DNA of 58,994 nt, counting the filler, from Jimgerdemannia flammicorona (taxonomy: Eukaryota), in NCBI GenBank assembly GCA_003990765.1. It is 2 parts of 2 records of this genome, joined end to end, with 100 filler letters (N's around TTAATTAATTAA, not from the genome) between each part and the next. Parts side by side here need not be neighbours in the genome. Positions count along the whole stretch, not along the records: positions 29,567 to 58,994 come from RBNJ01000499.1; 1 more part is not named here. The stretch is one strand, 5' to 3'. Below, piece by piece: positions 15,601 through 58,687 of the stretch. Made by a program: the position numbers and the translations under genes. The notes below the pieces were generated by a model, which did no database searches, was not told where the DNA came from, and worked only from the letters and a program-made list of their open reading frames with translations. Each line of letters opens with the position of its first letter. Position 1 is the first letter of the stretch.

Positions 15601-18600
15601 CCTTGTCATAGGGGATTGCTTTGACTGTGAGGAGTGCCATAATGTAGGGCAAGAGGGGGGTTATATACAGACACCAGAACATTGGCTAGAAGAGTGTGAG
15701 GTGTTGGGAGATTTTTGGCAGACAATTGAGAATCACTTGGGGGTACAGGGTAGGAGTGATAAAGTATGGGAGAGGTGGGAGAACTTGAGGGATAGATTGG
15801 TAGGGGGGATAGAGAAGGAGTGGCTTACTTTGGATTGGGCTTTGGCTATTTGGGTAGGGCTGGCCAGCCATTGGCTATTTGTTTTTGAGGATAGGAGGAG
15901 ACAGAGCTTGGGGGACCAGTTGCTGCAGTGGCATAGGCTTATGGAAGACACCTTAACAGGCTGGTGGCTGGGTTGGGAGATGTGGGGTGGTCAGAGGCGC
16001 TGCTTGGTGGAGAAAATCTGTGGGCAAAGTGGGGGGAGAGTGGGGGTAGTTGGTGAAAGGGTGATTTTCATTCATGAGAAAGTAGGGAGGGGCCCCTCTG
16101 TGGGGATTGGATAGTGGGTAGGAATAATATATATTTATTCATAGACTGGTAATAAAGGTAGAGTCCAAGTAACTATAAAAAAAAAGAAAGAGAAGGAGGT
16201 GGGAAATCTACTTTGGATGTGCAGGATGATGAATAACCTGGCAGCTGAAGAGCTTGGGGAGGTGGACTTGAGGGTGATAAGTGATGAGTATAGGGCATGG
16301 GTATTGCAGAGAGATAGTGTGGAGTTGGTATTGAAGGCAGAGATCCTTGCAGTATATCTGGAGGAGGAAGGGTATGAGGTGGATAAGGAGTGAGAGGCTG
16401 AACTAGTAGAGGTTACTGGTGAGAGGGCCAAGTACTGTTGGGCCAAGCGACATGGGTTGTAGCTCTGGCAGGAGGCCTGTCTGGAATACTGAGAGGAGTT
16501 TGAGGAGAAGGCAGATGAAGAGATGAATGAGCTGTTGGCTGGATTGGAGGCTCAGAGGACTGAAGAGGAGGTGGTGACTGCAGAACATAATCTGGACATA
16601 GTACAGGAAGAGATGAACTTGGAGCAGTAGAGATAGACTGGATAAAACCACTATACTTCAATATGAATAGTACAATCAACATTTTTTCACTGAACATAAA
16701 TGGGTTATGGGGTACTTCTAGATGAAGGAACATTTTTACTTGGCTGAAGGGATTGGAGACTGATCTCTTCCTCTTGCAGGATGTCAGGTATGAAGATGAT
16801 TTGAATAAACTGGAATGAACAAAGAAATGGGGAGGTGAGGTAGTTTGGATGGGCAAGGTTAGGATTCTGATATAGAAAGGCAGAGGGGAGATAAGGGATA
16901 TGCAGAGCTGGGGGAATAGACTGGTCTGGGGTAAGTGGATATGTACTGGATAGGAGCCAATTACAGTGGGATCTTGTTACTGCCCTGCTATATAGGGTGA
17001 GTATATGGACTAGGTGAAGAGTCTTCAAGAGAGTAGAATACTTGCAGAGGCTGGGGTGGATGTACTGGGTGGAGACTTTAATATGATTTGAGAGGTACTA
17101 TTAGATAGAACAGATGGAGGACAAGGAGTTGAGGGTCAGAGTGGAGGGCTGGTGGCATGAGAGGAAGTGGAAAGGCTGAGTGCTCTGATGGATGCAGGTA
17201 GGAAGTACTGGGGAGATAGGAGAATATACATGCATTAGGCAGAAGGCTTGGAAACAAGAATTGATTGGATTCTGATGGCCAGCTGCTGGGGTTTGGATGT
17301 TTGGAGGTCACTGGAGGTGGAATGGTGTCCTTGGTCAGATCATTGAGGGATTCTTAGACAGGGTCAGTTTGGGGGAAGTGGGGATGGGCCTGGACATTGG
17401 CACCTCAATTCCTCCTTATTAGATGATAGGATCTGGTGAGATGGGTGGGCTGCAGACATTCAGCTACAGGTAGAGTGTTGGAGGCAGGAAGGTACCCCAG
17501 TGGGTATTTGGTAGATGAGGATAAAGGAGATGGCCAAGACATACTGGAGTGAGGCTGGCAAGGAGGCTGAGAAACAGAGAAGGCAAAAGGTGAGATGGGC
17601 TTCTAGTAGACTGTCTAGGCTCTTAGGAGATTGGGCAAGACTGATGACATTGGAGAGGGAGGAGAATTGGAGGTCCATAAGAGTGAAAAAGGAGGTTGGT
17701 GAACTACAACAGATGCTGCAGGAGGAGGAAGAAGTGAGGGTGAAGGGCTTGGCAGCTAGGCTATATTGGCAGGGTTTGGAAGAAGAGAAGAGGCCCTCTA
17801 AGTTTCTCATGAGGGCCTTTCAGGCAAGGAGAGTGCAACAAAGGTGAGAGGGAGTGCTCAACTCTGATGGTATTCTGGTCCATAGTATTTAAGATATTCT
17901 TGGATCTTTAAAGGAGCACTGGAGTGGATTGTGGAGTGAGGAGAAGGGTGGGGTAGATGCCAATGTGATTGGCTGTGTATTAGAAGATTGGTAATCTCTA
18001 CAAGTAGATGAGATGGGTGACTTGGTATTGCCAGTCCAAGAGGAGGAGATCTGCCAGGTTCTCACCATGACAATGCTGGGTATGGCACCTGGAGAAGATG
18101 GTTTGCCCTGGGATTTCTTGAAGAAAATGGTTGGGAACTGAGTGAGATGATAGTATTGTGTGATCTTATTCTACAGACAGGAAGATGGGTGGGGGAATAG
18201 GATCTGGGATTGGTGATATTGCTCTACAAGAACAAAGAAAGGTAAGAGGACTGGAAGAACTGGAGGCCAATTATGCTCTTGGATATAGACAGAAAGTTGG
18301 TTACTAAGGTGGTGGTTGTGAGGCTACAAATGGTGGCACAGCAAATCTTAGGCATTGAGCAGAGGGGCTTTGTAGAGAGATGGCTCATTAGGGATGGCAC
18401 AGCCTGGGTACATGGAGTTATTGAAGGGGCATGAGCTTGTGGATTGGATGGGTGCCTGGTCTTCTTGGATCAGGAGAAGGCTTATGACCAGGTGAGATGA
18501 GTCTGGCTGGTGAAAGTTTTGGATAGGGCTGGGGTTCTGCACCAGTTCCAGTCAGCAATGGTCAGTCTACTGGAAGAGAGTAGGGTGGCACTCATGTGTA

Positions 18601-20369
18601 ATGGACATCAAGGAGTGGCTTTTCCCCTAGGTAGGGGGGTGCTCCAGAGGGACCCATTGTCCCCCATTTTGTATGTCCTTTCTCTGAAACTGCTACTGGT
18701 TAGAATTAGGCAGAAGATAGTGGAGCTCTCTATCTTTAGCATTGGGTAGAAGGTAGGGGCCTTTGTAGATGATATAGTGGTTGGACTGGGATCAATTGCT
18801 GATGTCAAGGAGCTTAAGGAGATAGTGGAGTGGTATGAGGAGAACTCTGGGGTGAGACTTAATTAATATAAGTGTGAAACAATGGTGTTAGGCAATGGTC
18901 TGGTGGGCAGGGAGATTATTGGAACAATTATCCCTGCTGATGAGGCAGTGTGGTACTTGGATATCTATCTATCAGTATATAGATCAGTACTACCCAGGCT
19001 TTGATGGGAGCAGTAGGTTGGTATCTGGGGGGAGGCCCTGCAGAGTTGGGGGGGCTGTCAATTGTCTCTGGCAGGGTGTGTTACAATTTTGAACATCTAC
19101 TGGCTGCTGAAGTTGTAGTATCTGACATATCATCTGGACTTCCCATTCTGGGTAGTGAAGCAGCTGATGAAGCTTGCCAAGGGATGGATCTGGGCTGGAA
19201 GGAGGAGTCAGATAATCTGGGAGGTCTTATCCTTACTAGTGGCAAGTGATGGACTGGGACTAGTTGACTTTCCGAAGAGGCTACACTGCTTGAGAGTTTG
19301 GTGGTTGAAGAGAGCCATAGAATTGAGAGGGGGTGGTTGAGTTCTCCTATTGCAGAAGGTTTGGGAGAGGCAGTCCTCACCAAGAGGCTCAACTGGTGAT
19401 CTCTTATCTTTGGTTGGACTTCAGAACACTAATCAATTGTGGTATAAAGGATTCTGGTGAGGGATAGCAGAGGGGGAATACCACATCAGGATCTGTTGGC
19501 AGGGGAATGAAGGAGAGGAGGATTGGGACCCAGTGATGTGGAGATGAGACTGGGTGCTACTGGGTGGCATCCCATTACTTGAGTTTGACATTAGTGATGG
19601 AATGGACTGCTAGAGGGGACCAGGTCAGGATCTGTGGCCCAGTGGTTGGCAAGGTGTAGGAATTGGCAAGAAGTGGGACTGATGTAACATTTGAACATGG
19701 AGTGCTGAGGTGAGAAGATGGATGCTGCTGAAGTACTGAGTGACTTGGTGGCACATGCTGAGGAGGAATATCATGCTCAATTATCACTTGGGTTACCTTG
19801 TTGAGGGGGGTTGTTTTGATTGTGAGGAGTGCTATAATGTAGGATAAGAAGGGGATTATATACAGATACCTGAACATTGGCTAGAGGAGTGTGAGGTACT
19901 TAGTGACTTTTGGCAGACTATTGGGGATCATTTGGGGGTAAGGGGCAGGAGAACTGGTGTGTGGAGGCAGTGGGAGAATTTGAGAATCAGACTGGTAGAG
20001 GGGGTGAGAAAGGAATGGCTCATGCTAGGCTGGGCTCTGGCCATTTGGGTTGGGTTGGCTGGTCACTAGTTATTTGTTTTCAAGGATGGGAGGAGACTGG
20101 GCTTAGAGGTCTGGCTGCAGCAGTGGCATAGCCTTATAGAGGATACCTTGATGGGCTGGTGGCTTGGTTGGGAGATACCAGGGGGCTGGAGGTATCATCT
20201 GGTGGAGAAAATTTGTAGGCAGAGTGGGAGAAGGGTAGGAGTGGTGGGGAGAAGGTGGTCTTTGCTTGGGTTGGGGTGGGGAGAGGCCCCCCTATGGAGA
20301 TTGGGTAGTGGAAGGAAGACTGTATATTTAACAATAGACTGGTAATAAATGGCAGAGTCCAAGTAATTA

Positions 20370-20401: not shown

Positions 20402-23400
20402 TCTCAGATAAAACCAACTATATGGCTGATGGTTTCTCTAGATATATGGAAGATGAACTTGTCTTTATGGTCAAGATAATTAGAGACCTTACCCAGATGA
20501 TTAAGGATAGTTATTAACAAGACAGCCTCTTGGTGAAATTCCTTCAATTCTGCCAAGACCCAGAGACCAAAGTCCCAGAATCTATGAGGCAAATGTCTAA
20601 GAGATTCACTTACCAAGATAGACTTATCTACAGAGACCATAACAGAGTAGTTATACCTAACAATGATACTCTGCAACTTAAGATTATGCAGGAACTCTAT
20701 GATACTCCTGCAGTAGGACACTTTGATTTCAAAAAAATCTATAACCTCCGCTCAAGAGAGTTCTACTGGCCAAAGATAAACAAGGACATTAAAGACTTTA
20801 TAATCTTATGTAAGATATGTCAAAGGTTCAAAAGTAGTAACAAGCTACCCACAGGACTTCTGCAATCTCTGCCTATCTCAAGTCACAACTGAGGCCAGAT
20901 TGTAATAGACTTTATTATCCAGCTCTCCAAGACTAAGGCAGGATGGGATGCCATTATAGTATTTGTGAACTACTTAAGCAAATAAGCCCATTTTGCATCC
21001 ATTAAGACCACTGTGACAGTACCAGAGATTGCTAAGATTTTCCTCAACCAAGTATTCAGACTATATGACATATCTAGTACTATTGTATCTGACTGGGATA
21101 TAAAGTTTATAAGCAACTTCTGGAAGGCATTCTTCTCTCTCCATAGAACCAAGCTGAAGTTCTCTACTGTCTACCACCTCCAGACTGATGGTCAAACTAA
21201 GAAAACTAACAGAACTCTTAAGCAGATGCTTAATATCTTCTGTTGTTATAAGCAAAATGATTGGAATAAGTACCTAGCCCATGCTGAGTTTGTCTACAAC
21301 AATAGTTAGCAAACCTTTATAAAGAAGACTCCATTCTTTCTGAACTATAGTCAATACTCAAGGACCCTAAGCACCACTGTGAAATCAGCAGTTTCAGCAG
21401 CCCAAGATTTGGCCAAGACCATTTCTGATATTACTCAAATAACAAGAGATGCTCTCATAGAAGTATAGAACTATCAGACCAAGTATACAAACTTGAAGTG
21501 AAGAGAAGTCTCCTACAATATTAGTGACATAGTCATACTTAGAATAGACCACCTCTACTCAGATACCCTAGCACAACAACTAGCTAAGAAACTCTGTACT
21601 AGAATTATTAGACCATATAAGATTGTGAAAAAAGTCAGTGAAGTCAACTACAAGTTACAACTCCCCTACAATATTCAAGTACACTCAGTATTCCATATCA
21701 GTCAACTGGTGGACTACCATGAGAACTAATTCTCTAAGCATATAGTTCTACCACTACCACCAATTAGGATCAATGATTATAAGAAATTCAAAATTGAGAA
21801 AGTACTTGACCACAAGGTCTACAAATATCCCAAAATATTCAAGCAGTTTTTCCTCATCAAGTAGAAGAGTTATCCCAACCATGATGCTACCTGGGAAAAA
21901 GAAAAAGCTCTGAAGAATATATATGAAGCCCTCCAGAACTATATAGAAACACTCACTCCTTAGTAAAGAAAGAAATTACAGCTCTAAGGCTTAAAGCACA
22001 TAGTAATAAAAGAAGACACCATATATTTATCTGAAATATACAATACTGAACATTACAGAAAAAGGAATACTATAACTAATCAATAAGGAAGATACTCAGA
22101 CAAAGAATAAATTCAGTATGATATAGTAAAATACATTTGAACAACTCTATTTTATACTATCTGTATCATCTCTGCTGGATAATGATAGATACTTCATATG
22201 GAACTTAGAAAAGCCAACAATGTCAAAACCAATCTAAGTCCATCTACATGACAGATATTGTTACTAGGAATTGCCTTAAATTATAAGAAATACTATTTCT
22301 GAGAGATTTGAACTTCCAGCCATAACAATGAGAGCCCTCACCCTAGACAAGGATGGCCAGTTCTTGTAAATATACCAACCAGATAAAAAAAAAGAGAACC
22401 AAGATCTGTCAACTCTGTGTAACTACAACTGTAAGTAGCAATATCTTTGAAATTAGGATTTTCTCAGGTGACTAGTATATACTCTGCTTACAGCAACAGA
22501 TCACACATTCTGCTAAAAAGCATAATTATATCAAGATCATACCAGACTGACAAATAAGTATAAATATCCAAAGCAAGAATACACCACAACCCTTATCTCT
22601 CTCTCTTCTCACAAAGAAAAGACAAGACAAGAATGCCTGTTATCTACTGCTAAACTGCCTGCTATAGCCACTCTCTCCCAAGCCAGATTGACCACCTCTT
22701 TGGACACATTCAGATTGCTATTCAAGGAAGAAACTGCTGCTCTGAGACTCTTAACCTCTCCAGCTAGGACCTAGAATATTATGTTCTCAATTGCTATAAA
22801 GTCATTGAAAGGGCCTACCTTGCTACCAGCTGCCTAGAGATCTGGTATAAATACAAAATTGGCTACCAACTTCTCTAATATGCAAAGAACCTACTTATTG
22901 ACCAGATCTCAGACTAGACTCACCTAGACAGACACAAGCAAAGACTAACCAAGAAGGTCTATCAAATCATGTGCTATATACCTGAAGGATTTCCAGAACC
23001 TCTTCTTCTCTAAGATTGATGAGCTAGAGATCAAGGTAGCCCAAGAAGCTAACTTCTGAATTATCCTCAAGTCTACTAACTGTAAACTCCACTGGAGCTC
23101 CCTTCTGAATGACAATTCCAACCAATGGCTCCAGGATCTCTCTGATCTCTTTGAAGGACCACCTATCTGAATGGATATCCCCAGGTATAAGAATCAAGAA
23201 CCCTACTTAGATGGTCCCAACTGCATTCAATAGAGAACCCCTATACTAATACCCATACCAATTCAAGAATCATTTGCAGACCTCATTAACTTCTTTATCC
23301 TGAACTTCAAACTATTAGCAACTACTCCCTCAGCCACTAGAGAAGAAGATAACAATACTGAGAAGGATTCCCCACCTTTCTTTCCTCTGGTTCTCAATTT

Positions 23401-23439: not shown

Positions 23440-24239
23440 TATAATAGAATGAATAAGTAAATAGATAAGATGTGATAAGTGATCATGCAATAAGTAATCA
23501 TGTGACCCAGTGATGATATCATCATATAATTGAGTATGACATATGATATTATGAATGATGAATATAATGAATAATGTGAATGATACAAAAAATAATATCC
23601 AGTTTACCTCTAGCAATCAGTACTACAGTAATTATTACCACAGCAGCTAATCATTGCCTAGTAATTGAGGTCTTAATCACAAAGTGTTTTTTGCCACAAA
23701 TTATCTAACAAAGGTCATGATTACAAACCTCACTATAGTTACCAAATTAGTCACTTATACTTAGTCAGAAATCACAGACCAACTTATATAAATATCCTCT
23801 AGTTTCCATCTGAAATAAAGCAGTTTAGTTCAATCTTTGATATAAGAATCAAGTCCCCCCCCCCATATATACATATTTTTCTGAGTTTTAATAATAATAC
23901 CTAAGTGACTCTAGTATTTCTGACTAAACTCCAGAAGTCTAGCTAACTTCTGCCTGAACTGAGACTAGTATACAAATTACAAAAAACTTAAGTAAATCTA
24001 TTGAATCTGAATTCCAAGATGAATTCAGTCTGTGTACAGTAAAGAATAAGACCCTTGAAAGATAGGGTAAATAAGAAAGACCTTTGAAAGATAAGATACT
24101 GCCACTATAACTACTTTCAAGTAAACACTTCCTCAAACTGAAGGCTTCTTGGTACACACCATGTACTAAGTCTTTAAGTAATACTCATTTCCCTAAGTAT
24201 CTAAAGGATCAGAGAGAGATAGAAATAAAAGTTATTATA
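23440..24239 (+). repeat. 3' LTR of the chromovirus
   Basis: TATAATAGAATG...GTTATTATA; aligns with the 5' LTR almost entirely through C>T and G>A differences. Confidence 0.92.
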
Positions 24240-25324: not shown

Positions 25325-25530
25325 ATCGCAGAATTAGCAAATGTCAAGCAACTCAAGTCTGTGTAAAGTTATAATGTACAATTCCTATCAATTTTACTTG
25401 AACTACCAGCAATAGCTGAAGATGAGAAGATAGACAGCTACATCTGAGGCCTGAAAGGAAACACATGAGTCAAGGTTGAGCTAGAAGAGCCCCAGACCCT
25501 TGATGAAGCCATGAGAATTATTGACTGGAG
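25325..25530 (+). mobile_element. Isolated Ty3/Gypsy gag fragment
   Basis: ELANVKQLKSV*SYNVQF...EKIDSYI*GLKG...ELEEPQTLDEAMRI matches the retrotransposon capsid pattern. Confidence 0.65.
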
Positions 25531-25834
25531 AGCATTGTGATAACTGTGAAATCAGCCTTGCCAGTAAAAAATTGTGGCGAGAAGGAATCGATAAGGTAGG
25601 GAGGAGGAAAAAATCTGCAAATAGCAGTGGAAGGATGTTTTCGTGCCAAGCTCTGCAAGTCAACAAACATGCAAAAAGGTCTGGATTTGCAATCTGGTAA
25701 TAAAAGAAATTAACGTCATTCACTAGCAGTTCCAAGAAAACAAGAATCCATATTTCAATTGGGAGTGATGGGTGGGGTGAGGTGGGGAATGGTGGGTGGG
25801 AAGTAGGTAGATGTGAGTTGCGTGAGTTGTCCAT
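25481..25834 (-). pseudogene. F-box N-terminal fragment truncated by the gag fragment
   Basis: SLPIEIWILVF...LFACLLTCRAWHENILPLLF; paralogous to the F-box segment at 25260-25320. Confidence 0.6.
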
Positions 25835-27284
25835 CGGCTCGGTCCCGGTGCATTGGTTGAGGCTCCGGTGGGAAAGGAGAGGTGCTGGATAGTAAATAAA
25901 CCACGATAAGCTCGATTGCTTTACTTACCGACAAATACGATCATTCATGGATCACAGATCAACATGAATCAAGTGCTGTATCACGGCTATGACGGCAGGG
26001 AAGGATAGTATCATATTCACCCCGTATCCTACCCACAATACCTTGAAACACCTCAATAAATCCCGTCCATTTAGCTCTCTCATTTTCGACACTATTTTGG
26101 GCTCTTCAATGCACGACAATGCTAAGCACGGTTTTAGGCCGATGCAGCTGGCGCGTGTAGTGAAAATTAGGCTGAGAATCTTCCCAGTACCTTTTTTTTG
26201 TCACTGACACGCTTGCAGTTTGGTTTCCCATAATTCGGTTAACTGACTCATTGTGGAGTCTATTTCACCCTCGCTCATCTCGTCGGTAAACAGCGAACGT
26301 TTAATGTATTCATATATGTATTACGCACTAGTTCAGTGGAACGCATCTGGCCACACTCTGGATGACGGCTGTGGGAGGTTGTTGGCTGATCACCGATTGG
26401 AAATGTTGGATTTCCATCAACATTTTCATCTCATTGCGTGAACTGGTTGCACAACCCATCCTATCCTCAATATGAACCTAGGAGTATCGATGCCACCAAT
26501 CCCTTCGCCTATTACATCACAGAGGCGGAATTTCAGACAGGTGTCCAAATAACGTGTTTTTTATAATGGTAATTGAAGAGATCAAACAATAATTCTGCAC
26601 TGGAAAAGTGGGGGACCACAAAGCCTTCCCTGCTAGCTGAGATTTATATTCAATTATCATACAAACATATAAAATGTTTAGGATATCAGTTGACAGACTA
26701 AGAAAAAAAATACATTGATGTTTGAACATTGTAATTAGAATTATGGCTAGCCTCAGCCATAGATTCCGCAACCTCCCTATTTCCAGAAAAAAAAAAAAAA
26801 AAAAAAAAATCTTGTGTAATATATATCTAAACGACGATTCCTACTCAGACCTTTTATCTACGATTTCCTACTGGTTTTTTTAGATGGCTTGACTTGAACG
26901 ACCAATGGGCTTTGCAATCCAACCAAGTTCCTCTCCAATAAAGATGTGGCAATTATCTCCGACCTTCTGTAACATCAAGTCTGTTATCCCCGACCTGATG
27001 AGCAATGCCAAACCTTGGCTGAATCGCTTCCGCACGGAAGTCAAATTAGGCAGAGGTGTCAGATATATTCTGCGCGTTTACCAGACTCTCAATTTCACTA
27101 CGAACCATAACAAACCACAACAAACCATAAACAACAACCACAAGGTGCTGTAAATCAACAAAATTTGACACATTTGAAGTATTGGCGAGAGTCTAACACA
27201 TCTTCCTTCATAACAGATGAAGTACAACAGACAAAATTGTCATAAGGCAACCCATTATGCAGAGCAACTCCTCTCAATGGATTC

Positions 27285-27722
27285 TGAGCTAGGAGGATTT
27301 GAGATCTCAACTAGTGGGAGGTGTCAGCAATGGGTGGCTCACTGTAGGGTGGGTTTTAGCAGTATGGGTAGGGTTGGCTGGACATTGGCTCTTTGTTTTT
27401 GAGAAAGAACAACAGATAGGTGTGCAGGAGAAGTTGTTAAGGTGGGAGGGGTTGTTGGGTGATCTGCTGACTGGGTGGTGGATTGATTGGGGTCCCCAAG
27501 GTGGGCAACATTGCCATCTGGTAGAAGGGATCTGTGAACAGAGTGATGGGCAGATAGAGATGGTGTTTGACAAAGTAGTCTTTCATCAAGAGAGAGTGAG
27601 GGGGGGGCCCCTAGGGGGATTGGATAGGGTGAGCTTTGTGTATTATATAGAGGATAAATAGGTGTACTAATAAAGAAAGGAGTCTGAGTGACTATAAAAA
27701 AAAAAAAAAAAAAAAAAAAAAA
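27285..27722 (+). mobile_element. Short 5'-truncated LINE with polyA tail
   Basis: ORF2 C-terminus LVGGVSNGWLTVGWVLAVWVG, AATAAA, a long polyA, and TSD TCAATGGATTC at 27274-27284 and 27723-27733. Confidence 0.9.
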
Positions 27723-27794: not shown

Positions 27795-29466
27795 TGATAA
27801 GTCTTGAGATAGCTCCTGGAAAGAATAGCTTATCTTGGGATTTCTGGAAGAGAATAGTGGACATTGAGTTGATTTTGGAGGAGATAACATAGATATATGA
27901 TGAGATTATCAGCTTGGGGGCTCTTAGGTCTTGTGGCTCTATTGTACAAGAACAAGAGAAGAAGAGAGAAGTAGAAAAACTAAAGACTGATCATACTTCT
28001 AGATATAGATCATAAGTTGGTTATAAAGATATTAATAGCTAGACTATAGAGAGTAACTCAGTGAGTACTGGGGGAGGAGTAGCAGGACTTTGTTAGTAGC
28101 TATCTGATAAGAGATGAGATAGCATAAGTATATAATATTATTAAGAGAGCACATACTGCAGGAGTAGATAGTTATCTGGTATTTCTAGACCAGGGGAAGG
28201 CTTATGACAGAATCTGGTAAGTATGACTAAAGGAGTACTGAGGCATATTGGGGTTTCTTTAGGATTTTAGTAGTCTTTGGTCAAGCTATTGGAGAAAAGT
28301 CAGACAGCTATTCTGATAAATAAGTATAGAGAGATTTTATTTCCTCTGGATAGAGAAGTACTATAGAGAGATCTATTATTACTGATCTTTTATACTATCT
28401 TCTTAGAGCCTCTACTGGATAGGATTTGGTATAAGGTAGGGAGATTGAACATTCTTGGAGTGAATTAGAAGATGAGGGCCTTTGCTGATAATATAGTGGT
28501 TGGACTAGGCTCAGTGAAGAATGTGGTAGTACTGAAGAGAGCTGTAGAATAGTATAAAGAGTGCTCAGATACTAAGATTAACTAGTACAAGTACAAGAAT
28601 ATGATATTGAGTAGTAGAATAGTAGGTAGAAATATGATTGGAATAGTTGTTTCAGCAGAAGAAATAGTGTATTATTTGGAGATCTACTTTTTAGTATATA
28701 GTTCTCTATTATCTAGAGGATGATGAGAGCAGTGGCTGATAGAGTAAGAGAATATACTCCTAGAGTAGAGAGGCTGATATATCTCTCTGACAGAAAGGGT
28801 GATAGTATTGAATATATATTAGATGGTAAAGTTGTGATATCTAGAGTATTACTAGACTTCCTGATATGAATAATTAAGAGATTATTGAAGATAGCCAAAA
28901 TCTGGATATAAGCTAAATAGTAGAGTCAGATTAGTTGAGAGATTTTGACACTACCAGTAGACTAGGAGAGGTTAGATCTGGTGGACTTTACCAAGTACCT
29001 ATACTGCTTGAGAGCATAGTAACTGAAGTGAGCTAGCAAGTTAAAGGGATATAAGTAGGTGCCTCTAATATAGTAGATATAGGAGATGTAATTCTCTTCC
29101 CATAATATATCTGGTGACTTGCTTTCTCTAGTAGTATTGAAGAGGAGTCAGAGCGTGGTGGAGGTTCTTGAGGGGGAATGTGATGCTGAACTACCAGTCA
29201 GGGCACTTAGTGCCTGATGGTATGTTTGAGTGTGAGAAATGTTTGAATGTAGGTCAGGAGGGGGGAGTGGTGCAGACGCCTGAACATTGGCTGGGGGAGT
29301 GTGTAGTAATGGGGGACTTTTGGAACATTATTGCTAGTCGGTTGGGCCTACGGCCTTTATTGGAAGGGGAGGGAGGGAGATGGGGGTACTTTAGGCGGAG
29401 GTTAGTGGGTGGGGTAGGGGATGAATGGTTGACCCTAGGTTGGGCCCTGGCAATCTGGGTAGGGAT
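27795..29466 (+). mobile_element. LINE ORF2 remnants: a heavily mutated RT part to ~29150 joined to a less mutated C-terminal part
   Basis: LDQGKAYD and FADN with many TAG stops, then CEKC...QTPEHWLGEC with some CpG retained. Confidence 0.85.
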
Positions 29467-29579: not shown

Positions 29580-32025
29580 AAGATACTGATCTGTTCTTGC
29601 TATAAGATATAAGATGTAAGAATGAGTCTAATATAGAGAAAGAGAATATTATAGATACTGGATATTAGAGTAGAAGAGTGATGTGAGAAACTTAGAGGAG
29701 GTAGAGTTGGGAACTGATAGTAGTTAGTTTATACTACTGTTCAGTAGAGAGAGAGGCTAGGATAGAGTGACTAAGCTAATTAAAGAACTCTGACATTCTG
29801 ATAGTAGCTGGGGTAGACTACTTAGGGAGAGACTTTAACATAGTCTATGATAGCAAAGAGGATAGAACAGATGGTGGGAGAGAGATAACAGATTGAAGTA
29901 GTGACTGAACTACTGGAAGGAGATTAAACAACTTAGCTCTCTGGTAGATAGAGGTAGGTAGTAGTGAGGTGAATGTCAGATCTATACTTACTAGGAAGAT
30001 AGACTTGGCTCTAGGATTAACTAGATCCTAACAGCTGAATGCTAGGGAGAGGATATCTGAAAAGCACTAGAGATTGAATAGTGTCTATAGTCAGATTACT
30101 AAGAATTGTTAGAAAGTAGAAGATTTGGAAGAGTAGAAACAAGTCTGGACATTAGTGACTAAACTCTTTATTATTAGAGGAAGACATCTTGTAGAACTCT
30201 TAGATGATTAATATAGAGACTAGAATTAGAGATTGGAAGAAGAGGGGTCTGAAGATTGGATATTAGTAGCAGAGACTGAAGTCAGAGACTCAGAGATTTT
30301 GGAGAGGCAGAGAGATTCCAGAGCAGGTAACAAAAGAGATACATATATTTATTGGGTGTCACAGAGGTTGGAAAGGCTTCTAAAAGAGTAGGCTGGTCTG
30401 TTAGAGAATAGTGAGTTAGAGGACTGGAGAACTCAGTATGCCCAGGTAGAAGTGAAGAAGCTACAGAATCTTTTATATGTAAAGAAAGAGATAATAGTAT
30501 AGGACATAGTGGCCAGATTGAGGTGGTAGCCTGGAGAAAGAAGAATGACTGACAAAGTTTCTGTCAAGGCTCCTCTATGTAAGAAGAGTGAGACAGTATT
30601 GAGAAGAAATATTGGATGAGAAGAGATAGATATTAATAGAGATGCAAGATATGTATCTTAGATCAGCTAGGTTAGAGGTGGAGTCTACTATAGAGTAAAG
30701 AGGAGAGGAGAGAGAATATACAGACTATTGAGCATTATCTGGAGGACTAGCACTCTGACTCAGTAGTAGAGTTAGGGGAGCTAGAGTGGCCAGTACAAGG
30801 AAGAGAGATTTTCAAGATTCTAGTAAAGACTAAGATGGAAATGGCTTCTGAGAAGAATGGTTTGCCTTAGGACTTCTGGAAGAAGATGGCTAAGGTAGAA
30901 GTAGTATTGGAGAAAATGTTCAGATATATGATACAGTTATTAGTAATAATAAGTAGATTGGAGAACAGAGTCTGAGTCTGATAATACTGTTGTTTAAAGA
31001 TAAGGAAAGATAAAATAAATGAAAGAACTAGAGGCCAATAATACTTCTAAATATAGACTACAAGTTAGTTATCAAGATCATAGTTGCTCACTTGTAAGAG
31101 ATAGTTCAGAGAATTCTGAGTGAGAAATAGTAGAGTTTTATAAAGAGTAGACTAATATATAATAAGACAGTATAGATATATAGTATTATTGAAGAAGCTT
31201 GAGCTGTAAGAGTAGATGAGAGACTGGTATTTCTAGATCAATAGAAGACATATGTATAACAGAGTATATAGAGTATAGTTGAAGGGAGTTCTGAAGTACA
31301 TTAGTATTCCTCTGAGCTTTTAATATATACTGATAAGTCTATTGGAAATAAGTAAGACAGTTATTATAGTAAATGATTATAGAGAAGTTTATTTTCCTTA
31401 GGTAGAGGAGTGCTACAAGGTGATCTATTATTACCAATTCTTTATATTCTATCCTTGGAGCCTTTATTAGATCATATTTAGTACTATATAGAGAGTTTGA
31501 TAATTTTGAGGGTGAATTGAAAAATTGGTACCTTTGCTGATAATATAGTGGTTAGACTGGACTCTATAGCAGATGTGGTGATCTTGAAAAAAGCTGTAAA
31601 ATAGTATATATAAGAGGTACTTAGAGGCTAAGCTCAATTAGAATAAGTATAAGATTCTGATACTTAGTAGAAATATAGTGAGTGGAGATATCATTTGATT
31701 AATTGTCTCAGCTGAGGAGGCAGTCTAGTATCTGGGAATATATTTCTTAGTCTATGGCTCATTACTGCCTAGAGATTGGTAGAAGAGAAAGCTGGAGGAG
31801 TGAGAGAGAGCTTTATAGACTAGAGTAGCAGATATATCTCACTGACTAGGAGGGTTATGATTCTAAATATTTACTGGATATCTAAGCTGTAGTACATATC
31901 TTAGTTATCATCTGAACTTTCTGACATAGGTAGTGAAGTAACTCTTGAAGATAGTCTGCTCTTAGATCTAGGCTGACAGATAGAGTCGAGTGAACTGAGA
32001 GATACTAGTACTACTAGTAGACCAA
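29580..32025 (+). mobile_element. Heavily mutated LINE ORF2 (APE and RT)
   Basis: Contains GDFN, VLQGDLL and FADN; colinear with ~16760-19250. Trp codons are often converted to TAG. Confidence 0.85.
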
Positions 32026-32343
32026 TATAATTAAATTACATCCCAATATTATAAAGAATGATATCATCAAGCTGACATTATTGGATTCATATCACTAGCA
32101 AAGTTACATGCTAAAAAAACTAAGAATATTAGTGAGATTATAATAATTTTGTACTAATTTCAGCTCTCTTCAATCAGTGATATCATAGTAATCACACTAG
32201 TCTCTATACTAGTTTAGTATATACTCACACTGATATCACTATGAATATACCTCAGAAATAGACTAAGAATGCTAAAAATAGTATGAGACTAAATTAGTCT
32301 ATAGCTACATTGATGTTATAAGCTAAAATAGTCTATGATATAT

Positions 32344-34405
32344 TGTAAGCGCATGATCTCTAAGCCACCGAAATTACACGTCACCCTCTGAACAAGCCAC
32401 TGAAATCTCACATGACCTCCGAACAAATCTGGAAATCACCTGCTTGATCATGAAGCTGAGTCAAACCGAAGTCACAGTGCATAAAGCTGAGTCAATACAA
32501 AGTCATAGAATACAAGATCTACACAAACAGAATCTTACCAATCAGGATCAAATGCATATATACCGAGCACCAAGATGCATCAATTTAGAGAACAAACACA
32601 CAAACAACAACCACAACTTCTAAACACACAAACATGACCACCGAGATCTATACCCACATCTGTACTGATATTTGGAATGCCATTGTCAACCGAGCTACAC
32701 CCCCTCTGCCCCTCATGAATATCCATAGCCTAGCACCCCTCTACTTCATGGAAGCCTGTTGGAATGCTCTGAACATGCTTAGCGAGGCCCACTGAATCAG
32801 ACAAATCTCAAGCTACTACCAGATCAGTCACCTCCTGGAAGACATGGTCAAACACCACCATGATACAGACATCACCCAGATGTCTCAACACCAGAAGCTC
32901 ATTGCCCGCAAACATCGAGAACTTTTCTATGAGTACAGTACCATTATTCTCCACCTCCGAGTTACCACCAGTGAAATGGTTGCTACCCTGTCCTACGGCC
33001 AAATTGATGACATGATACAAGAACTCAACCACAAGTACCTTGAGTACATTGAAACCACAGACAGAACCTTCCCACACCCCAATGACCATATCCTGCAAAT
33101 GCCTCAAGTTGGATACGCCATGAAGGATATCTACAATATAATCCACTTCGATGAAGACGAAGCAGAAGACAATGATTCCTCTGATGCTAATATGACTCTA
33201 GCCAAGGATCTCTGCCAACCCTGATCACTCCGCCAACCTTGCCGATGAACTTACAACAGTTCATAACTACATACGAGACTTATTGGGATAATGACCACTG
33301 GCACGAATACCAACCTGCGTTCACCCCTGATTACTTCAACTACAATGAAGAGACCGGAGAACACAACCTGTACCTCCAGACAACCCTCGAGATTAAACCA
33401 ACCACTCCACCACCTGAGTACGAGTGACATGAACCACAGCCACCAGCTTACTACAATTCTGCAACTCATAGTGCTGTAACCTATAGAAGGTATGCAGACA
33501 GTGAATCCAATAAAGCGAAGATGATACACCCATCCTTCGTCCACCAATACCTTATCCAGCCTATGAGACAGACGATACTATCCTGTGGGATGGAGATGAA
33601 GTTCCAATGTATTATTATCTCAGCAAACAAGGAGAAGTAATCTGCGAACCACTCTTTCTGGACGACTACTTCATCAGAGATGATGCAATTGATGGTGATG
33701 TCATCGAGGACTACCCAGACAGTACCTAAACCCATAAATAGCCTAGCAGTCATAGTATAGTCAGATTAGCTTTGTACGACATGACTGTGAACTGACTCAG
33801 CAGTCAGACGATCTCTTGACATGTCAGATCACACTTGTACTACATGACTGCATTCCGACTCAGCAAAGCACTTAGTGCTACATCCATATTCAGCATAGCC
33901 CAGATAGCTCCTCACTAGTATAAATACCCCCTCCCCCAGACCTCAGAATCTTAGACTCAAACACACAAGAACATTCCTAAATACTTCCCCACAATATCCC
34001 TTCACACAACTACTCCTAGTATAGCAATATCATGAATAGTGAATAAACCTATTTAATAACCCACAAACCACTCTTAAGTAAATCCACTCCCTGTTAGGTC
34101 CTACTCCTAACTCCCTCATGAAACTTCCTAATTGGGTATTGTCTGCAGCGATACACCAATTCAACTAAGCTGGTCTTAGTTTCTTGAACTTCCTGAAATA
34201 CGGAAAATCCTGAACATCCAGAACTAGTCCGAAAAAGGACTTTGGTTGAGACGTCAATCCAATCTTGAAATCAATAAGCATAGAGGACGTACTCCATATG
34301 AAATTGATCTTGACCATAAGAAAACGGTCTTCCAGAATATCCAGAACTCCCAGAAAACCTTTCCAGAACTACATAATAGTTACCATAAAAAGCAACCCTC
34401 TTACA
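32344..34405 (+). mobile_element. 2,062-bp solo-LTR-like element carrying an internal ORF cassette
   Basis: Termini TGTAAG...CTTACA with a 5-bp TSD TATAT (32339-32343 / 34406-34410). TATA boxes at 32557 and 33919, AATAAA at 34042. Composition differs sharply from the flanks. Confidence 0.7.
32634..33729 (+). pseudogene. Two tandem ORFs of unknown function inside the solo-LTR-like element
   Basis: ORF-A runs from ATG 32634 to TGA 33246-33248 with internal TGAs at 32793 and 33222. ORF-B runs from ATG 33245 to TAA 33727-33729 with an internal TGA at 33425 and a 1-nt shift near 33512. Confidence 0.55.
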
Positions 34406-37133
34406 TATATATTATAGAAACTAGAGTATATTGAAATTAGTCATTGATATCATTAGCTCTCTGATGTCAAAAGCTAGTAAGATCTTCAAGACCAGTGACT
34501 TCATGAGCTAAACTAGACTATGATAAGTTATAAAATCATAGTTGCTATATACTAAAATAGTTTGTTTGGTAAATAAATAAAAAGCCAGCAAATTAGCTCT
34601 GAGAAAATAATCAACTAAACAATTACCATATAAACTCAAAGATACTCCACAAAAACAAAAACTAAACATAAATAAATCATGTCTTCTTCTTCTAAATATA
34701 TCTATGAAGTCTTCTGAGAAGTAGTCTTTGATCATCAGCACTAGTATCACTAGGAACATATTGATCTTGATACTTATAATATAGAGTAATTTTTTAAAAC
34801 TATTGATGAAATTGCTACTAGAATATAGTTAGTCATAAGATACTTCTAAATATTAAGAAACTATCAAGCTGGTAGACTCTTAGTAAGGAGTAGTATGATT
34901 TTATCAGAGATGGTAGATGAATACAATATCTCTATTTTCAGATAGTATATTTTGATCTACTCTTACCAATTACTCTGAAAAATATTCTATGCTATTAGTA
35001 GTATAAGAGAAGTAACTCCTGCAGAAATTGGTAGTCTTGATGACTAATTAACAAGTCAAATTAAACTAGATCTCATAAATGACTTTAATCTATAAGAGTA
35101 TTATAATGATGATATCTGGTCTTATAAAAATAATATCTTCAATAGACTCATTGGTCTATTCCAAGCACTTATTTCTTAGATTCAAATACTTATAAATACA
35201 TATCTGGCTATAGAGATTTCCTATACTAGCTAATATGAGACTAGTCTCACCAGTATCATATCATCTGACTTTAAGACTCTAGGAGAGGTCTTAACTCCTT
35301 TTACAGAGATCTGTTATTATCATATGATGTAATGAAATACTACATCATAAGTTTCAGTTGAAATTCAGAATAATTACTTTATAGTTTATGTGTAGAAATA
35401 ACACTATTATGGTATAACTTTTATATTATTTCTAGTAACTTTTTATTTTATACTTTTTAGCCAATAGTTAGTCAATGTTAAAAGACCTTCAAAATGTATA
35501 AATATCCCCAGATAAATAACTCAAGAACTTAGAGAATTCACAGAATATTGAATATAAGAACAATTAAGACTTAAGTCTATAATATATAGATAAGTCTCAG
35601 AATAATTTCTAATAGAAAGACTATATCTAAAATTAGATATCCTGAACTCTATAAATACTTGAATCCTGAAGAATTTAAATATAATTCTCAAAACTAGACT
35701 ATATCTAAAAAGGATTTACTAAAGAACTTAGACTTTAAAGAATTAAAGTTCATAATTGCTAAATTATTATTCAAATCTACCAGAAGGAAACTAAATCAAT
35801 TAAAAGTACAATAGATAGTACTTAGGCATTAAGACAGCCACTTTCTCAAGTTACAAACATCTAACATAAGTATCTTTAAGTTATTAATATTAAGAATTAT
35901 TAACTTAAAGAGTATAATTACTATCTCCAGGCTCTGAGATTGAGATATAGCTATCTTGCTCTAGTAGAGAGCTCTCAGAGATAATTAATTTCTCTTTTTC
36001 CAGTAGGGTCTAGGGCTTCTATGAAGTTGATGGTATCTTCAACTCATTCTTGACAAGTTTGATATCTAATGAGAGCTAGAATATTATCTCTTAGATTATA
36101 GATCTTAAGAATCTTCTTTTTTGGTTTTTTGATTTAATTCTTTTAGATCTGAGCTCTATTATCTCTCTTCTTCAGTATGTATATAATAATATCTTGGCTG
36201 AGGTGAATCTTCTAATGTTAGCAGTCTCTATAGTCTAAATGTTTTCTATTATTATAATATCTCATTGCTCAAAAATATAGTTCCTGTTTATTGATTTCTT
36301 ACTGCCTTGGAAATTAGTATTCATCTTTATTATAGGTTAGGAGAAGGGTGGCTAGAGGTTGTACCTCTGTTTGGATAAAGAGGTTTTGTTTATTGGCTTA
36401 TCTTTTCAATATTGTGATTTTTTCTTAAAAGGTAGTAGACTATGCAATTATAGTTAGAGATTCTGATCTATAATTTCTTTATTTTTCTTGCTGATCCAAC
36501 AGATAGCACTAGTTGGAGAGAATAGAAGACTTATTAATGCTGACATCTCTCTAGTCTAAAGACTCTCTTTTGATAGATTTCATATCTTTAGATAATAGTA
36601 ACTATACTTGGGCCTTCTTCAAGATTCTAGGGATCATTATCTTCTGGTAGTATCTAGTAAAGATTATCTTAGAGAATGAGTTTAGAGAGTTTTTCTTATT
36701 TGGGAACTTCTTGTTCAGGGGTTTCTTCTTCAGATATTTCTTGATCCCAAATTGCTTATACTTTTGTAGCTTCAGTTATAGATAACTTTAGGATATAGTT
36801 GTATTTCTTCTTTCTTTTTCTACACTCTGAGCAAGCTATACATATCAGGTGAATTCCTTTTTTCAATGATCTTAGAAGAGTGTTCAGAGCACTTGTATCT
36901 TTTGAGACAGGTGGAATATCCTTAGATTTGTTCTACTATTGCTCTAATTATGATAGAGATAGTGTTTTTGGTCCATATATTATCTTCTGGCCTGTCATCT
37001 ACTATAATGATTTATAGATTAAGTCAGAGGTCATTTTTATCTTTAGATTCTTCTTTTTCTTCTGTTGTAAATTCTTTACTACTAATAGACTCTTTCTAGA
37101 TAATGGCTTTCTTCTTATTTATTTATTTATTTA

Positions 37134-38585
37134 TTTTTTTTTTTTTATAGTTACTTAGACTCTATCATTTATTACCAGTCTATTAATAAGTTTACAGTAT
37201 TTCCTCCCACTACCCGATCCCCATAGGGGAGCCTCTCCCTACTCTCTTCTGAATAAAGACCACCTTCTCTCCCACTACTCCAACCCTTCTCCCACTCTGC
37301 CTATAGATTTTCTCCACCAATTGATATCTCTGACCACCCTGCAACCCCCAACCAATCCACCAGCCTGTCAAGGTATCTTCCATAAGGCTATGCCACTACA
37401 GCAGCTGGACCCCCAAGCTCAGTCTCCTCCCATCCTCAAAAACAAATAGCCAGTGGCTGGCCAACCCCACCCAAATAGCCAAAGCCCAGCCTATGTGAGC
37501 CATTCCTTTCCCACCCTTCCCACCAGTCTATCTCTCAAATCCTCCCACCACCCCCGCATGTCAACTCCCCTGTACCCTACTACCAAATAGTCCCCAACAG
37601 TCTGCCAAAAGTCACTAAGTACCTCACACTCTCTTAGTCAATGTTCTGGCATCTGTACATATCCCCCTTTCTGCTCTACATTATGGCACTCTTCATAGTC
37701 AAAACAACCTCCCATGATAAGGTGACCTGAGCAGTAGTTGAGTATTATATTCCTCCTCAGCATGTGCCACCAAGTCACCCAGTACTTCAGCAGCATCCAT
37801 CTTCTCACCTCAGCACTCCAGGTCCAAATGTCACACCAGTCCCACTCTTCACCGATTCCTACTCCTTGCCAACCACTGGGCCACAGATCCTGGTCTAGTC
37901 CCCTTTGGCATTCAATCCTATCACTAATGTCAAACTCGAGCAAGGGAATGCCACCCAGTAATACCTAGTCCCATCTCCACATCACCAGATCCCAAGCCAC
38001 CTCTCCTTTATTTCCTTGCTAATGAATTCTAATATAGTGTGCCCCCTCTACTACCCCCTACCAGAAGCCTTTATATTGCAATTGTTCAGTGTTCCAAAGG
38101 TCAACCAAAGATAGGAGATCTCCAGTCAAGCCCCTTGGTGAGGACCTCATCTCCCAGACCTTCTGCAATAGGAGAACCCAATCTCCCCCTCTTAACTCCA
38201 TAGCTCTCTTCAGCCACTATACTCTCAAGCAGTGTAGCCTTTTTGGAAAGTCAACCAGCCCAAGTCCACCACTTGCCACTGATAAGGACAAGTCCTCCCA
38301 GCTGATCTGACTCCTTCTTCTAGCCCAGATCCACCTCTTGGCCAGCTTCATCAATCTCTTCACCACCCAGACTGGGAAGTCCAGATGATAAGTCAGATAC
38401 CATAACTTCAGCAGCCAGTAGATATTCAAAATCAAGACCTGCCCTGCCAGAGACAATTGGTGACCCCCCCAACTCCACAGGGCCTCTCCCCAGATTCCAA
38501 CCCACTGCTCCCACCAAAGCCTGAGTAGAACTGACCCATACACTGACAGATAGATACCCAAGTACTGCACTGCTTCACCAGCAGG
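37134..38585 (-). mobile_element. 5'-truncated LINE, ORF2 3' part plus tail
   Basis: PolyT at ~37134-37147 next to the family 3' end, and QYLGIYLSVYGS...LSLAGQVLILNIYWLLKLWYL. No TSD was found. Confidence 0.9.
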
Positions 38586-42358: not shown

Positions 42359-42416
<58 letters not shown>

Positions 42417-45830: not shown

Positions 45831-48800
45831 CTAAATACACATCTCAAAGGGAGCCCCCTTCACCCCATGCTTCTTTTCATCCAAGCTGCTCCTACTATTC
45901 TGCGAAAACCACCTACGCCTGCTACCATCATCGGTCGGGCCACTCATGTTTAAGGTACGACTGCTTGAAAATGTCGATGTCCACTGGAGCGCTGACGTGA
46001 TGTCATTCGTGCTCCTACTCCTAAAATGCGACGACCAGCGAACCCAAAGGCCTCTGTCTTCCACATTAGATTCTTCGCCCTGCTCAATATCCCCACCCTG
46101 CTTCTCCTTGTCTGATCTTCCAGTTCGGCGCAGACGACCAACAGTTTCAACAATGACAAGGACGAGGGATAATGACGAGACGATGGCAAGGAGACTGAGA
46201 GAGTTCAGTTTGGCGAGAGGAAGGACGGCGAAGATGGCGGCGGTGACGTATCGAAAACTGATGCGCCATCTCTGAAAGTATTGGTCGAAATTGAGAGTTT
46301 GTCAGATGCTTGAAACATTAAATCGATCGGTGTAACCGGGCTTCTTGATTATAATGAAAACGAAGTACTCCCGGTACAATATTGTTAACTGTGGGCCAAT
46401 AAATCAACTTATCCGAGAACATCTACGTACCTTGTGTATCTTCATCAAATCTACTGCATCCATACTTTGGTGACTCAAACCAATCGTCGCCAAACAGCAG
46501 ATTGCCATTGAGAGCGACCCGCAGAATAACCAGTCAATCCCTGGAGGGATCTCTGTAAGTCGCTCGGCTCCATGTAGTCCCACAGGTATATTTTCCGATC
46601 CGGGAAAGTCCATGACCTGGACCAAAACTCCTAACGTGCTGCCCATGATGATGATTGCGGCGCAGAGTGGCAAATGCAAGAAGACAAACAAGAGGCCCGT
46701 AAAAATGTGACGACGGAGGGCGTGCTTGTATTGTCGTGACGCGTCAACGTCGAAATAGATCCAGTGCAGATTGTAGGCGAGGAGAAGACCCAAGACACCC
46801 TTTGCCGCTTGGGTATTGATATTGGAGCTCCAAGTGGAGTAGAGCAGAGCAATGACGCTTTCACCGAGGGTGATGATGACAAACAAACCTAAACGATCGG
46901 CCATGTGCTCGATGTTGACGGCTGCGCGGTAGAGCGGCTTTTGAATACAGAATATTTTGTCGTGCGGCCAATACTTCATAGCGGCTGGGTAGGCTGTGTT
47001 CCATAACCAATCTGCGTAAGTAGGGTATAATAAAATATTATGAGCTATTGTGAGTATAATGGATGGTATCTTTTGCACAATCGGTAATCAAGGTGACGCA
47101 CACTATCAGCAACAATCATGGTACGAATTTCCCATATCAACATGACTAACATTTACCAACTTACCAACAATAATGGCATACCAGATCACATTGGCTTGCT
47201 CCCTACTAGCAATTGGCATGCCAAGCGAGACAGCCCACAAAATGCAGCTGAACACATTGCCAAATATGTTGTAGAGCAAATATATGCGGAATTTTGGCAT
47301 GAAAAAGCAGAATATGAAATATACAAAGGCGATGGTAAGGCGTGCCAACAGATAACATCCTATATATATTGTGTAAAGAGAAAAAGAAAGGGAAGGGGGG
47401 GGGGGGTAATTCCTATTAGTACATAGGAAATTGAAGAAACACCAAACTAGATGAAAAAACTTTGGTAAATCTTACACGTACCAACAAATTGATTGAAGGT
47501 GGACACCACGACACCCTGTCATAAGAAAATATAAGGTGTCATGAATGCGTTCCACGAGATCCAATATGGGGGTGACGTTACGGCTTTATGCGCATCTCTT
47601 ACCTCATCGTTCACGTAGCCGGTGGAATGTACCTGTATGAATGAAACAGCGCGAGGAAATTGCATGTCCATATGAAGCTGGGCCTAAAATTTCATGGTTG
47701 TGTATGAAGCATACTATTCACTCATCTAGTTGACATCAATACATACCGCACTGATTGTCATCCCGATAACACACACCATTTCCTAGAGTGCATACAGAAT
47801 CGAGAATGTATGGGAAATAAATATATCTAGACAACCATCAAGCACCCTTTTCTCAATGTGAAGCGAGCTTTCCCTTACCCATAATATAAAGAATTTCTGA
47901 ACTAAATCTTCAGATGCCCAGACGTTGAGGTAAAAGTGGACGTCGTTCCTATGATTTATTCAACGAAAAGGTGAATATGATGGATCCCCAAGAGTTCAAA
48001 CGGATTCAAATATAACATCGCATCGATTATCAAATATTTATTGATCTTACCAAACTTTATAAAGTGGAATGAACGTCAGCACAAACTGTTCGAGATGAAA
48101 ACCATCGGGCTTGTGCACGAGCTCATGACCCATGAGCCCAATGGCACCCACAAAGATCAGGTCCCAAAAGAGCTCTGTATACGAAGTCCTGCGCTCCTCA
48201 GCTCCGCGGTGGAGAGTATCGCCTAGAGAGAATAAGATCAACCATCGATGAGTTTGAGCCAGGAAAATACAGTGGCTGTGTTCGGTATGGTATGCCATAC
48301 CTTTGAAATATTGTCTTGTCTTGGGTCTACGGATGAGTCTATCGTATTGGTGCTCGTCTTCATCGGCTGTTGATAACAGTGACGTGTATGTAAGTGCCGA
48401 TAGTTTGTTAAATATTTTGCGTTTGCCGGACCTCAAAAAGGCCGCAGAATTCCATGCTGACAATAACGATTGCAAAGTTTGATGAAAATAAAAACACTTA
48501 CGAATAATCTCAAGTTTTCGTATATGTCCAAAGGTGTGAATAGTAGCATGAATTGTCTTTGGGTTTATCATATAAATAAACCTAGTAAGCAATGTAATCT
48601 AATATACTTTGGAGATCGCACACCCCGATGGGCGCTATTTTTTTTTTTTTTTTTTTTTTTTTTTCATTGTGTACACAAAAATTGAGACCGCAATTTTTAC
48701 CTGCTCGGATGAATCGGTGCCATCTGCGGAATCAAGCTGTTGCAATTCACCTTAAGGGTAACACACGCGTTGCATGCAGTCAGAAAATGACGATAAACGG

Positions 48801-57241: not shown

Positions 57242-57369
57242 CTGCACGGAGTAGGACAAGGTGAACTGGAAATCTTAAAAAAAAAACTAGGCAACAGCCG
57301 TGACGTCTTTCCATCTTGTGTAAGACACAACACGTCTCTGATCCCTCGCTGTCCTCCACTCTCTCCGCA

Positions 57370-58652: not shown

Positions 58653-58687
<35 letters not shown>

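Follow-up and report, generated by a model that had tools for sequence, protein, structure and literature searches.

A probable solo long terminal repeat carrying a decayed but conserved gene in Jimgerdemannia flammicorona

A 2-kb unit in a 58,994-nt stretch of the Jimgerdemannia flammicorona genome (GenBank assembly GCA_003990765.1; parts of two records joined by filler, hereafter the window; the unit lies in RBNJ01000499.1) belongs to a multi-copy family with real ends and is probably a solo long terminal repeat (LTR). Its best explanation, which we judge probable, is a solo LTR of Ty3/Gypsy type whose U3 region holds a complete gene. A first-pass annotation made from the sequence alone had proposed an LTR with an independently promoted accessory gene or, alternatively, a new integrase-mobilised cargo element. 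The TGTAAG and CTTACA termini (32344-32349 and 34400-34405) and the TATAT target site duplication (TSD) that it described are present, as are the paired TGAGTCA direct repeats, the CCAAT and TATA motifs, the CA-rich leader and AATAAA (Table 1).

Part of the unit occurs in 20 of the 22 public sequencing runs listed (best share of words 0.25), most of which are soil metagenomes, with five runs coming from two organisms. Contigs of four runs (X1, X3, X4 and X14) were aligned to the window at 80% likeness, giving 3506, 61, 458 and 482 aligned contigs; in all four runs they cover the unit and hardly its unique flanks. Cover rises at the bin boundary at 32359 from 5.0 to 899 in X1, from 4.1 to 68 in X4 and from 0.43 to 18 in X3, and falls after 34418 from 1328 to 0.39, from 65 to 0 and from 8.0 to 2.9 in the same runs. 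The same variant letter is found in as many as 42 distinct X1 contigs (at 33395), which implies at least dozens of distinct copies, and copies range in likeness to the window unit from more than 99% down to less than 90%. Three contigs diverge from the window at the right end, at 34403 (X4), 34405 and 34407 (both X3), each continuing differently. The unit was judged real because the multi-copy repeat seen in these four runs ends where the unit does; the 59-kb window itself contains no second copy. Contigs of other copies bridge 32483-32728 (X4), 33709-34039 (X3) and 33675-33956 (X14), and a nested insertion private to the window copy was rejected on the strength of such bridging. Contig depth cannot rank the parts of the unit, and depth differences are read below as weak hints only; a 9601-nt X14 contig with a diverged piece of open reading frame (ORF, about 82% alike) near its start and a 104-nt skip decides nothing.

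The roughly 1.1 kb of ORFs reported within the unit are present and are four pieces of one gene, not separate ORFs. They represent a single decayed, conserved gene, since other copies differ from the window exactly at the breaks and two database proteins read through them. The ATG at 32634 is the first after an in-frame TAG at 32586, has A at -3 and is preceded by the CA-rich stretch. The pieces occupy three frames, 32634-33221 (interrupted by TGA at 32793), 33221-33637 (interrupted by TGA at 33425) and 33514-33726, and the natural stop is TAA at 33727-33729. With two stops of the CGA>TGA type (32793-32795 and 33425-33427) and two 1-nt deletions (about 33195/33196 and about 33508-33511), the window copy is dead. 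Other copies have an extra C behind 33195 (depth 6.03 of 6.03 in X3, 40.9 of 44.4 in X4 and 18.7 of 18.7 in X14), a site at which the X1 alignments break, leaving loose ends in 8 and 9 contigs; they also have one extra base at 33507-33511, and a T>C change at 33425 that turns TGA into CGA.

A word-indexed protein search yielded one relative among 12 candidates, P0001 (128 aa, 86% identity), which has arginine at the first TGA of the window copy. An exhaustive HMMER search returned four matches in 1.84 billion representatives, of which P0001 and P0002 are real and the other two are repeat proteins. P0002 (247 aa, 65% identity) contains no stop, ends where the window ORF ends and aligns colinearly with 32976-33176, 33212-33514 and 33517-33723 at 69, 75 and 61% identity; intact relatives encode about 365 residues (362 alignment columns). 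Codon-position composition is biased, with G making up 22-39% of first positions vs 8-14% of second positions, and shuffles of the unit gave no open frame above 179 codons. Among variants on the ORF path, 17 of 27 are synonymous vs 8.9 expected from the change types (binomial p = 0.0013). A single-copy element or unconserved ORFs had been named in advance as outcomes that would speak against the proposal; the unit is multi-copy in the runs, and its ORF has conserved relatives and a synonymous excess.

The earlier statement that the unit contains no gag, pol or transposase stands, with nothing above Pfam cut-offs on any of five ORF pieces. The encoded protein of roughly 365 aa is an orphan with neither a family nor a confident fold. 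A PDB sequence search gave no match, and the ESM Atlas offered no usable match by features and template modelling scores of at most 0.30 by structure. AlphaFold2 models had a mean predicted local distance difference test score of 40.9 from the single sequence and 37.2 from three rows, and were all-helical for residues 1-196 at low confidence. Because of these scores and the lack of a Pfam or PDB match, any function given to the protein is a guess. P0001 and P0002 contain no cysteine, and the C-terminal 247 aa have an isoelectric point of 4.05 with 18.6% D+E, 9.7% P and 9.3% Y. A captured conserved host gene was considered and rejected: the two real matches are fragments of the same family, no paralogue of the protein exists elsewhere in the window, and absence from cellular proteomes argues against such an origin.

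The gene lies between two pairs of repeat modules. Pair A consists of two direct units of 29-31 nt with TGAGTCA, a core that we take to be of the AP-1/Gcn4 class of bZIP sites. Pair B consists of two 43-nt units and, as its inverted-repeat matches indicate, is the reverse complement of pair A and not a direct copy. The second repeat set had been described as carrying TGACTCA, which is true of its first unit; the second reads CGACTCA. The GCTGAGTC and AGTCA cores are invariant in all four units, two forward and two reverse, and of five GCTGAGTC sites in the window four fall in the 2-kb unit. The same module thus stands in duplicate, in opposite orientations, some 50 nt upstream of each TATA-like block: P1 lies about 49 nt downstream of module A2, and P2 about 54 nt downstream of module B2.

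The order of motifs in the unit, a TATA block at 33918 followed by AATAAA at 34042, would fit a U3-R-U5 layout. Signs of an LTR come from comparison with the Ty3/Gypsy element of the window, which has LTRs at 7316-8106 and 23440-24239, reverse transcriptase at 14255 and integrase zinc and SH3 domains at 20518-21726. Its LTR runs from TGTAATAG to TTATTATA, AAGAAGAGAAGAA stands right before the 3' LTR, and the flanks of the element, CGGAC and CAGAC, represent a 5-bp TSD with one transition. Like the unit, this LTR has TGTAA...TTAYA termini, a 5-bp TSD and an 18-nt TATA block (7648-7665) with AGTCA-type motifs just upstream. The block had been called the same motif in both elements; it matches at 17 of 18 bases and starts in the unit at 33918, one base before the position first given. 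One X4 contig, moreover, runs from 34403 into TA and ACTTGGTAGCAGCAG, which is the same spacer and start of the primer-binding site (PBS) as ACTTGGTAGCAGTAG after the Gypsy 5' LTR (8107), so that this copy and the window Gypsy have in common a 3-nt spacer and the first 12 nt of the PBS, ACTTGGTAGCAG. Presumably TGGTAGCAG fits initiator tRNA-Met; the window contains no tRNA genes. Unlike the unit, the Gypsy LTR measures 791-800 bp, has no ORF and shows no significant similarity beyond the TATA block. The shared PBS, spacer, termini, TSD length and TATA block are indirect signs that would be consistent with a Ty3/Gypsy-type origin of the unit. The LTR structure first proposed thereby gains support, with a PBS after the right end in at least one copy and the gene upstream of a conserved TATA block.

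A repeat search found no terminal direct repeats in the unit, and no TTGGTAGCAG PBS with up to one mismatch lies inside it, which argues against a small complete element; a terminal-repeat retrotransposon in miniature (TRIM) and a large retrotransposon derivative (LARD) were rejected on these grounds. A DNA transposon with terminal inverted repeats (for example a Ginger-like one) was also rejected, the inverted repeat of the unit being only 6 nt long and no transposase domain being found. PBS-like sites at 30263, 31776 and 37577 had no LTR-like context by eye in excerpts of 180-1020 nt, and Rfam gave no matches on 31800-35000.

These results suggest a history in which a Ty3/Gypsy-type retrotransposon would have inserted into AT-rich DNA with a 5-bp duplication, and LTR-LTR recombination would then have left the unit as a solo LTR. 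The LTR of this family would be about 2.1 kb long because its U3 holds a complete gene, and its proposed order would be the GCTGAGTCA..AGTCA pair, CCAAT/TATA (P1), the CA-rich leader, the ORF, the inverted module pair, P2, AATAAA and U5 with its CA end. Under the standard LTR scheme P2 would start the genomic RNA, the AATAAA at 34042 would end R, and 34048-34405 would be mostly U5, which places the ORF in U3, at the 3' end of the genomic RNA. Its translation would thus need a promoter of its own (P1) or splicing. P1 might drive an ORF mRNA of about 1.5 kb ending at the same poly(A) site as the genomic RNA, in which case each LTR, solo LTRs included, would be a self-contained gene. Alternatively, P1 may be the genomic promoter, with the ORF in a very long R. 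The protein, with a predicted helical N-terminal half and an acidic, proline- and tyrosine-rich, cysteine-free tail, could act in trans for the element; the best single guess, that it activates or co-activates transcription by way of the shared modules, is speculation.

Several points weigh against the proposed LTR and its gene. The termini and TSD by themselves are not significant: TG...CA pairs with a 6-nt inverted repeat and a 5-bp flank match, spaced 300-5000 bp apart, number 10 in the window, and 200 block-shuffled windows give 4.5 on average, with at least one in 99% of them. The caution that TATAT could match by chance was sound for the ends taken alone; what makes the unit real is their match to the ends of a repeat with many copies. 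On the left, the contigs place the end of the unit no more closely than bin resolution, within a few tens of bases, with low cover of 32344-32358, and none of the 24 loose ends listed among 189 lies at the left terminus. The PBS link comes from one contig with 31 loose letters, and no window paralogue spans the rejoined flanks of the unit as an empty site would. No LTR pair around gag-pol was seen, and scans of metagenome and viral contigs gave nothing: in metagenome contigs a protein-pattern scan produced 377 pattern matches, none confirmed, and a 21-nt pattern (34259-34279) produced none, and viral contigs gave no matches in either pattern scan. Both promoters consist of motifs only, the test for selection covers no more than the 27 ORF sites found among 40 listed variants out of 519, and related proteins number only two in 1.84 billion representatives. 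The functional part is further weakened by the missing family, the missing PDB match and the poor models.

These weaknesses leave room for other explanations of the gene. The ORF could be a passenger, a sequence, captured or arisen de novo, that was carried along by a successful LTR subfamily without serving the element, with the P1 motifs and the inverted module pair as by-products of the capture event. We consider this unlikely. The scarcity of protein relatives beyond two fragments and the absence of a family or fold would be consistent with it; in addition, each of the four runs has more contigs over the 3' 400 bp than over the ORF part, and one X3 contig does not resemble the window upstream of 33675; these two observations hint at ORF-less LTR variants and so at an ORF that may be dispensable. 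The synonymous excess argues against a useless sequence, as do the biased codon positions and the relative P0002, which keeps 247 codons open to the same end at only 61-75% identity.

It is also possible, if quite unlikely, that the unit is a 5'-truncated element in which the ORF is internal, an env-like or other additional ORF between pol and the 3' LTR, and the true LTR comprises only the right-hand few hundred bases, TGTAAG and TATAT at the left having arisen by chance. The frequency of such termini in the window agrees with this, the PBS after the right end fits it equally well, and cover in X1 is two to three times as high over the right 400 bp as over the ORF, a difference such as LTRs show from internal parts, subject to the limit on contig depth given above. 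The additional ORFs of plant LTR retrotransposons likewise lie internally (PMC7264820). By eye, however, no purine tract or TG start matching CTTACA is found between the end of the ORF and the TATA block (33730-33917), whereas the window Gypsy has its tract before the 3' LTR. The left TGTAAG and TSD, moreover, coincide with the homology boundary. The local 5-mer match probability at the flanks is about 0.005, yet the flanks are low-complexity; from this rate, and with the right end taken as fixed, we estimate the chance of TGTAAG plus the same 5-mer within about 35 nt of the homology start at about 1e-4 or less. The best-supported loose ends (24 of 189) share no leftward continuation, and in X3 the leftmost 200 bp have a cover of 18-24 vs 5-9 for the ORF, which would be expected of two ends of a single LTR, with the same caveat on depth. 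The first-pass alternative of a self-standing, non-autonomous cargo element, mobilised whole by a Gypsy integrase and lacking an LTR pair, has in its favour integrase-type ends, a 5-bp TSD, many copies and no gag-pol inside. It lost ground in the analysis and is very improbable: the unit has neither terminal direct repeats nor a family-type PBS, nor a purine tract as judged by eye over the same interval, no known reverse-transcription route in the established LTR replication scheme would regenerate its ends, and a longer element begins with the unit in the one copy that is followed by a PBS.

If the unit is a solo LTR with a gene in U3, the nearest analogues of that gene would be retroviral. 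The LTR of mouse mammary tumour virus (MMTV) contains the superantigen ORF sag inside U3, and like the unit it would combine a protein-coding ORF in U3 with unusual length and a copy of the gene in every LTR. The likeness is one of layout: MMTV is an animal retrovirus and Sag a membrane glycoprotein, unlike the acidic LTR-borne protein with its cysteine-free relatives, and Pfam and PDB sequence searches revealed no sequence relation to Sag. In foamy viruses the accessory frames tas and bet reach the 3' U3, and an internal promoter exists besides the LTR promoter, with activator sites common to both. The unit resembles this arrangement in its second promoter (here motifs only), and its duplicated module before P1 and P2 invites the same logic. 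Foamy virus ORFs differ in starting upstream of the LTR and the internal promoter in lying in env, and no homology was found. Plant LTR retrotransposons carry lineage-specific additional ORFs of unknown function besides gag-pol, located internally, 5' of gag or 3' of pol, in sense or antisense (Vicient and Casacuberta 2020, PMC7264820). That text nowhere uses the wording 'in the LTR', 'inside the LTR' or 'within the LTR'; the gene of the unit, by contrast, lies inside the LTR and would thus survive in solo LTRs. In phrase searches limited to open-access literature, ORFs inside an LTR were found only for MMTV and a foamy virus and for no retrotransposon, which is not proof of absence. What would be new is therefore a retrotransposon LTR with a conserved accessory gene.

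LTRs usually count as regulatory sequence that encodes no protein, and solo LTRs as lifeless remnants. With a gene in the LTR, each recombination scar would start as a complete extra copy of that gene scattered in the genome. This would bear on how retrotransposons acquire and keep accessory functions and on whether accessory genes of the retroviral kind originated in U3 on more than one occasion; it also bears on annotation masking, as only two fragments of the protein are present among billions of predicted proteins. The TGAGTCA-type core, the tail resembling activation domains, the shared module and the analogy with foamy virus Tas together lead to a further idea, which we regard as a long shot: each LTR might be a self-contained gene for an activator of the very element that carries it, giving a retrotransposon a two-promoter feedback loop like that of Tas. 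The helical N-terminal domain would bind the GCTGAGTCA..AGTCA modules before P1 and P2, directly or via a host bZIP factor, and the acidic aromatic tail would activate transcription. Were this true, the many solo LTRs would form a dispersed reservoir of activator genes waking intact elements in trans.

Table 1. Features of the 2-kb unit and its target site duplication, in window positions
Feature	Position	Strand	Basis
Whole unit: probable solo LTR, 2062 bp, TGTAAG...CTTACA termini	32344..34405	+	Termini read in sequence; contig coverage in 4/4 runs
Left TSD copy TATAT, 5 bp	32339..32343	.	Read in sequence; flanks low-complexity
Right TSD copy TATAT, 5 bp	34406..34410	.	Read in sequence
Module pair A1/A2: two direct units, core GCTGAGTCA..AGTCA	32449..32510	+	Repeat analysis
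Promoter-like block P1: CCAAT 32538-32542, TATATA 32557-32562	32538..32562	+	Motifs only; putative function
Accessory ORF, decayed here; ~365 codons in intact relatives	32634..33729	+	Frames, contigs, relatives
Module pair B1/B2: GCTGAGTC..AGTCA core, reverse orientation	33760..33865	-	Repeat analysis
Promoter-like block P2: TATAAATACCCCC; putative genomic-RNA promoter and U3 end	33918..33930	+	Block common to both window Gypsy LTRs
AATAAA, putative polyadenylation signal in R	34042..34047	+	Motif only
Putative end of R and U5, ends CTTACA; part shared with the largest number of contigs	34048..34405	+	Contig tables

The surroundings of the unit form an AT-rich island (GC 0.29 at 34-36 kb), and the CpG observed/expected ratio of the unit is 0.44 vs 1.03 in 43-59 kb. 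The left flank at 32050-32358 is itself high-copy in run X14, and the insertion site of the LTR seems to lie within another AT-rich repeat. The insertion is bracketed by a 48-nt inverted repeat (32288-32335 and 34514-34561; 77% complementary) together with repeated CTAAAATAGTCTAT-like units. The G-rich repeat of the Gypsy internal region described below (CTGGTTGACTTTCC...CTGCTTGAGAG) has further copies at 28978-29033 (+) and about 38205-38260 (-), in opposite orientations on either side of the unit and its AT-rich island.

The two LTRs of the window Gypsy element have decayed one-sidedly. The LTR at 7316-8106 keeps 32 CpG sites (observed/expected 1.0) and that at 23440-24239 none, all 32 having become TpG, CpA or TpA; of 116 differences, 96 are C>T or G>A from the former to the latter vs 17 in reverse. 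The C>T changes affect CpG (27 of 32) and also CpA (20 of 64), and this looks like hypermutation, either similar to repeat-induced point mutation or driven by methylation, that hit one Gypsy LTR only. Within the internal region of the element, at 14289-20349, four repeat families are spaced identically by 4193-4195 bp and the sequence is strongly G-rich on the + strand, which indicates a tandem duplication of about 4.2 kb or two nested copies. Just left of the Gypsy 5' LTR, a 366-codon open frame at 5800-6897 (-) has internal repeats of about 465-490 bp and no Pfam family, and is unrelated to the LTR-borne ORF. Weak F-box-like matches below the Pfam cut-off lie on either side of the element, at 3822-4145 (-; E = 1.5e-4) and 25484-25924 (-; E = 4.4e-4).

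Pure poly(A) runs of up to about 54 A (42361-42414, 27695-27722 and 58650-58682) may have originated as tails of retrocopies or of non-LTR retroposons. On both sides of the repeat-rich middle of the window lie ordinary cellular genes, at 26-895, 46404-48598 (-), 53315-54154 and 56810-57274 (-); they comprise Cwc15 (E = 6.8e-65), an LtrA-family membrane protein in two exons, DUF2358 and EMG1/NEP1.

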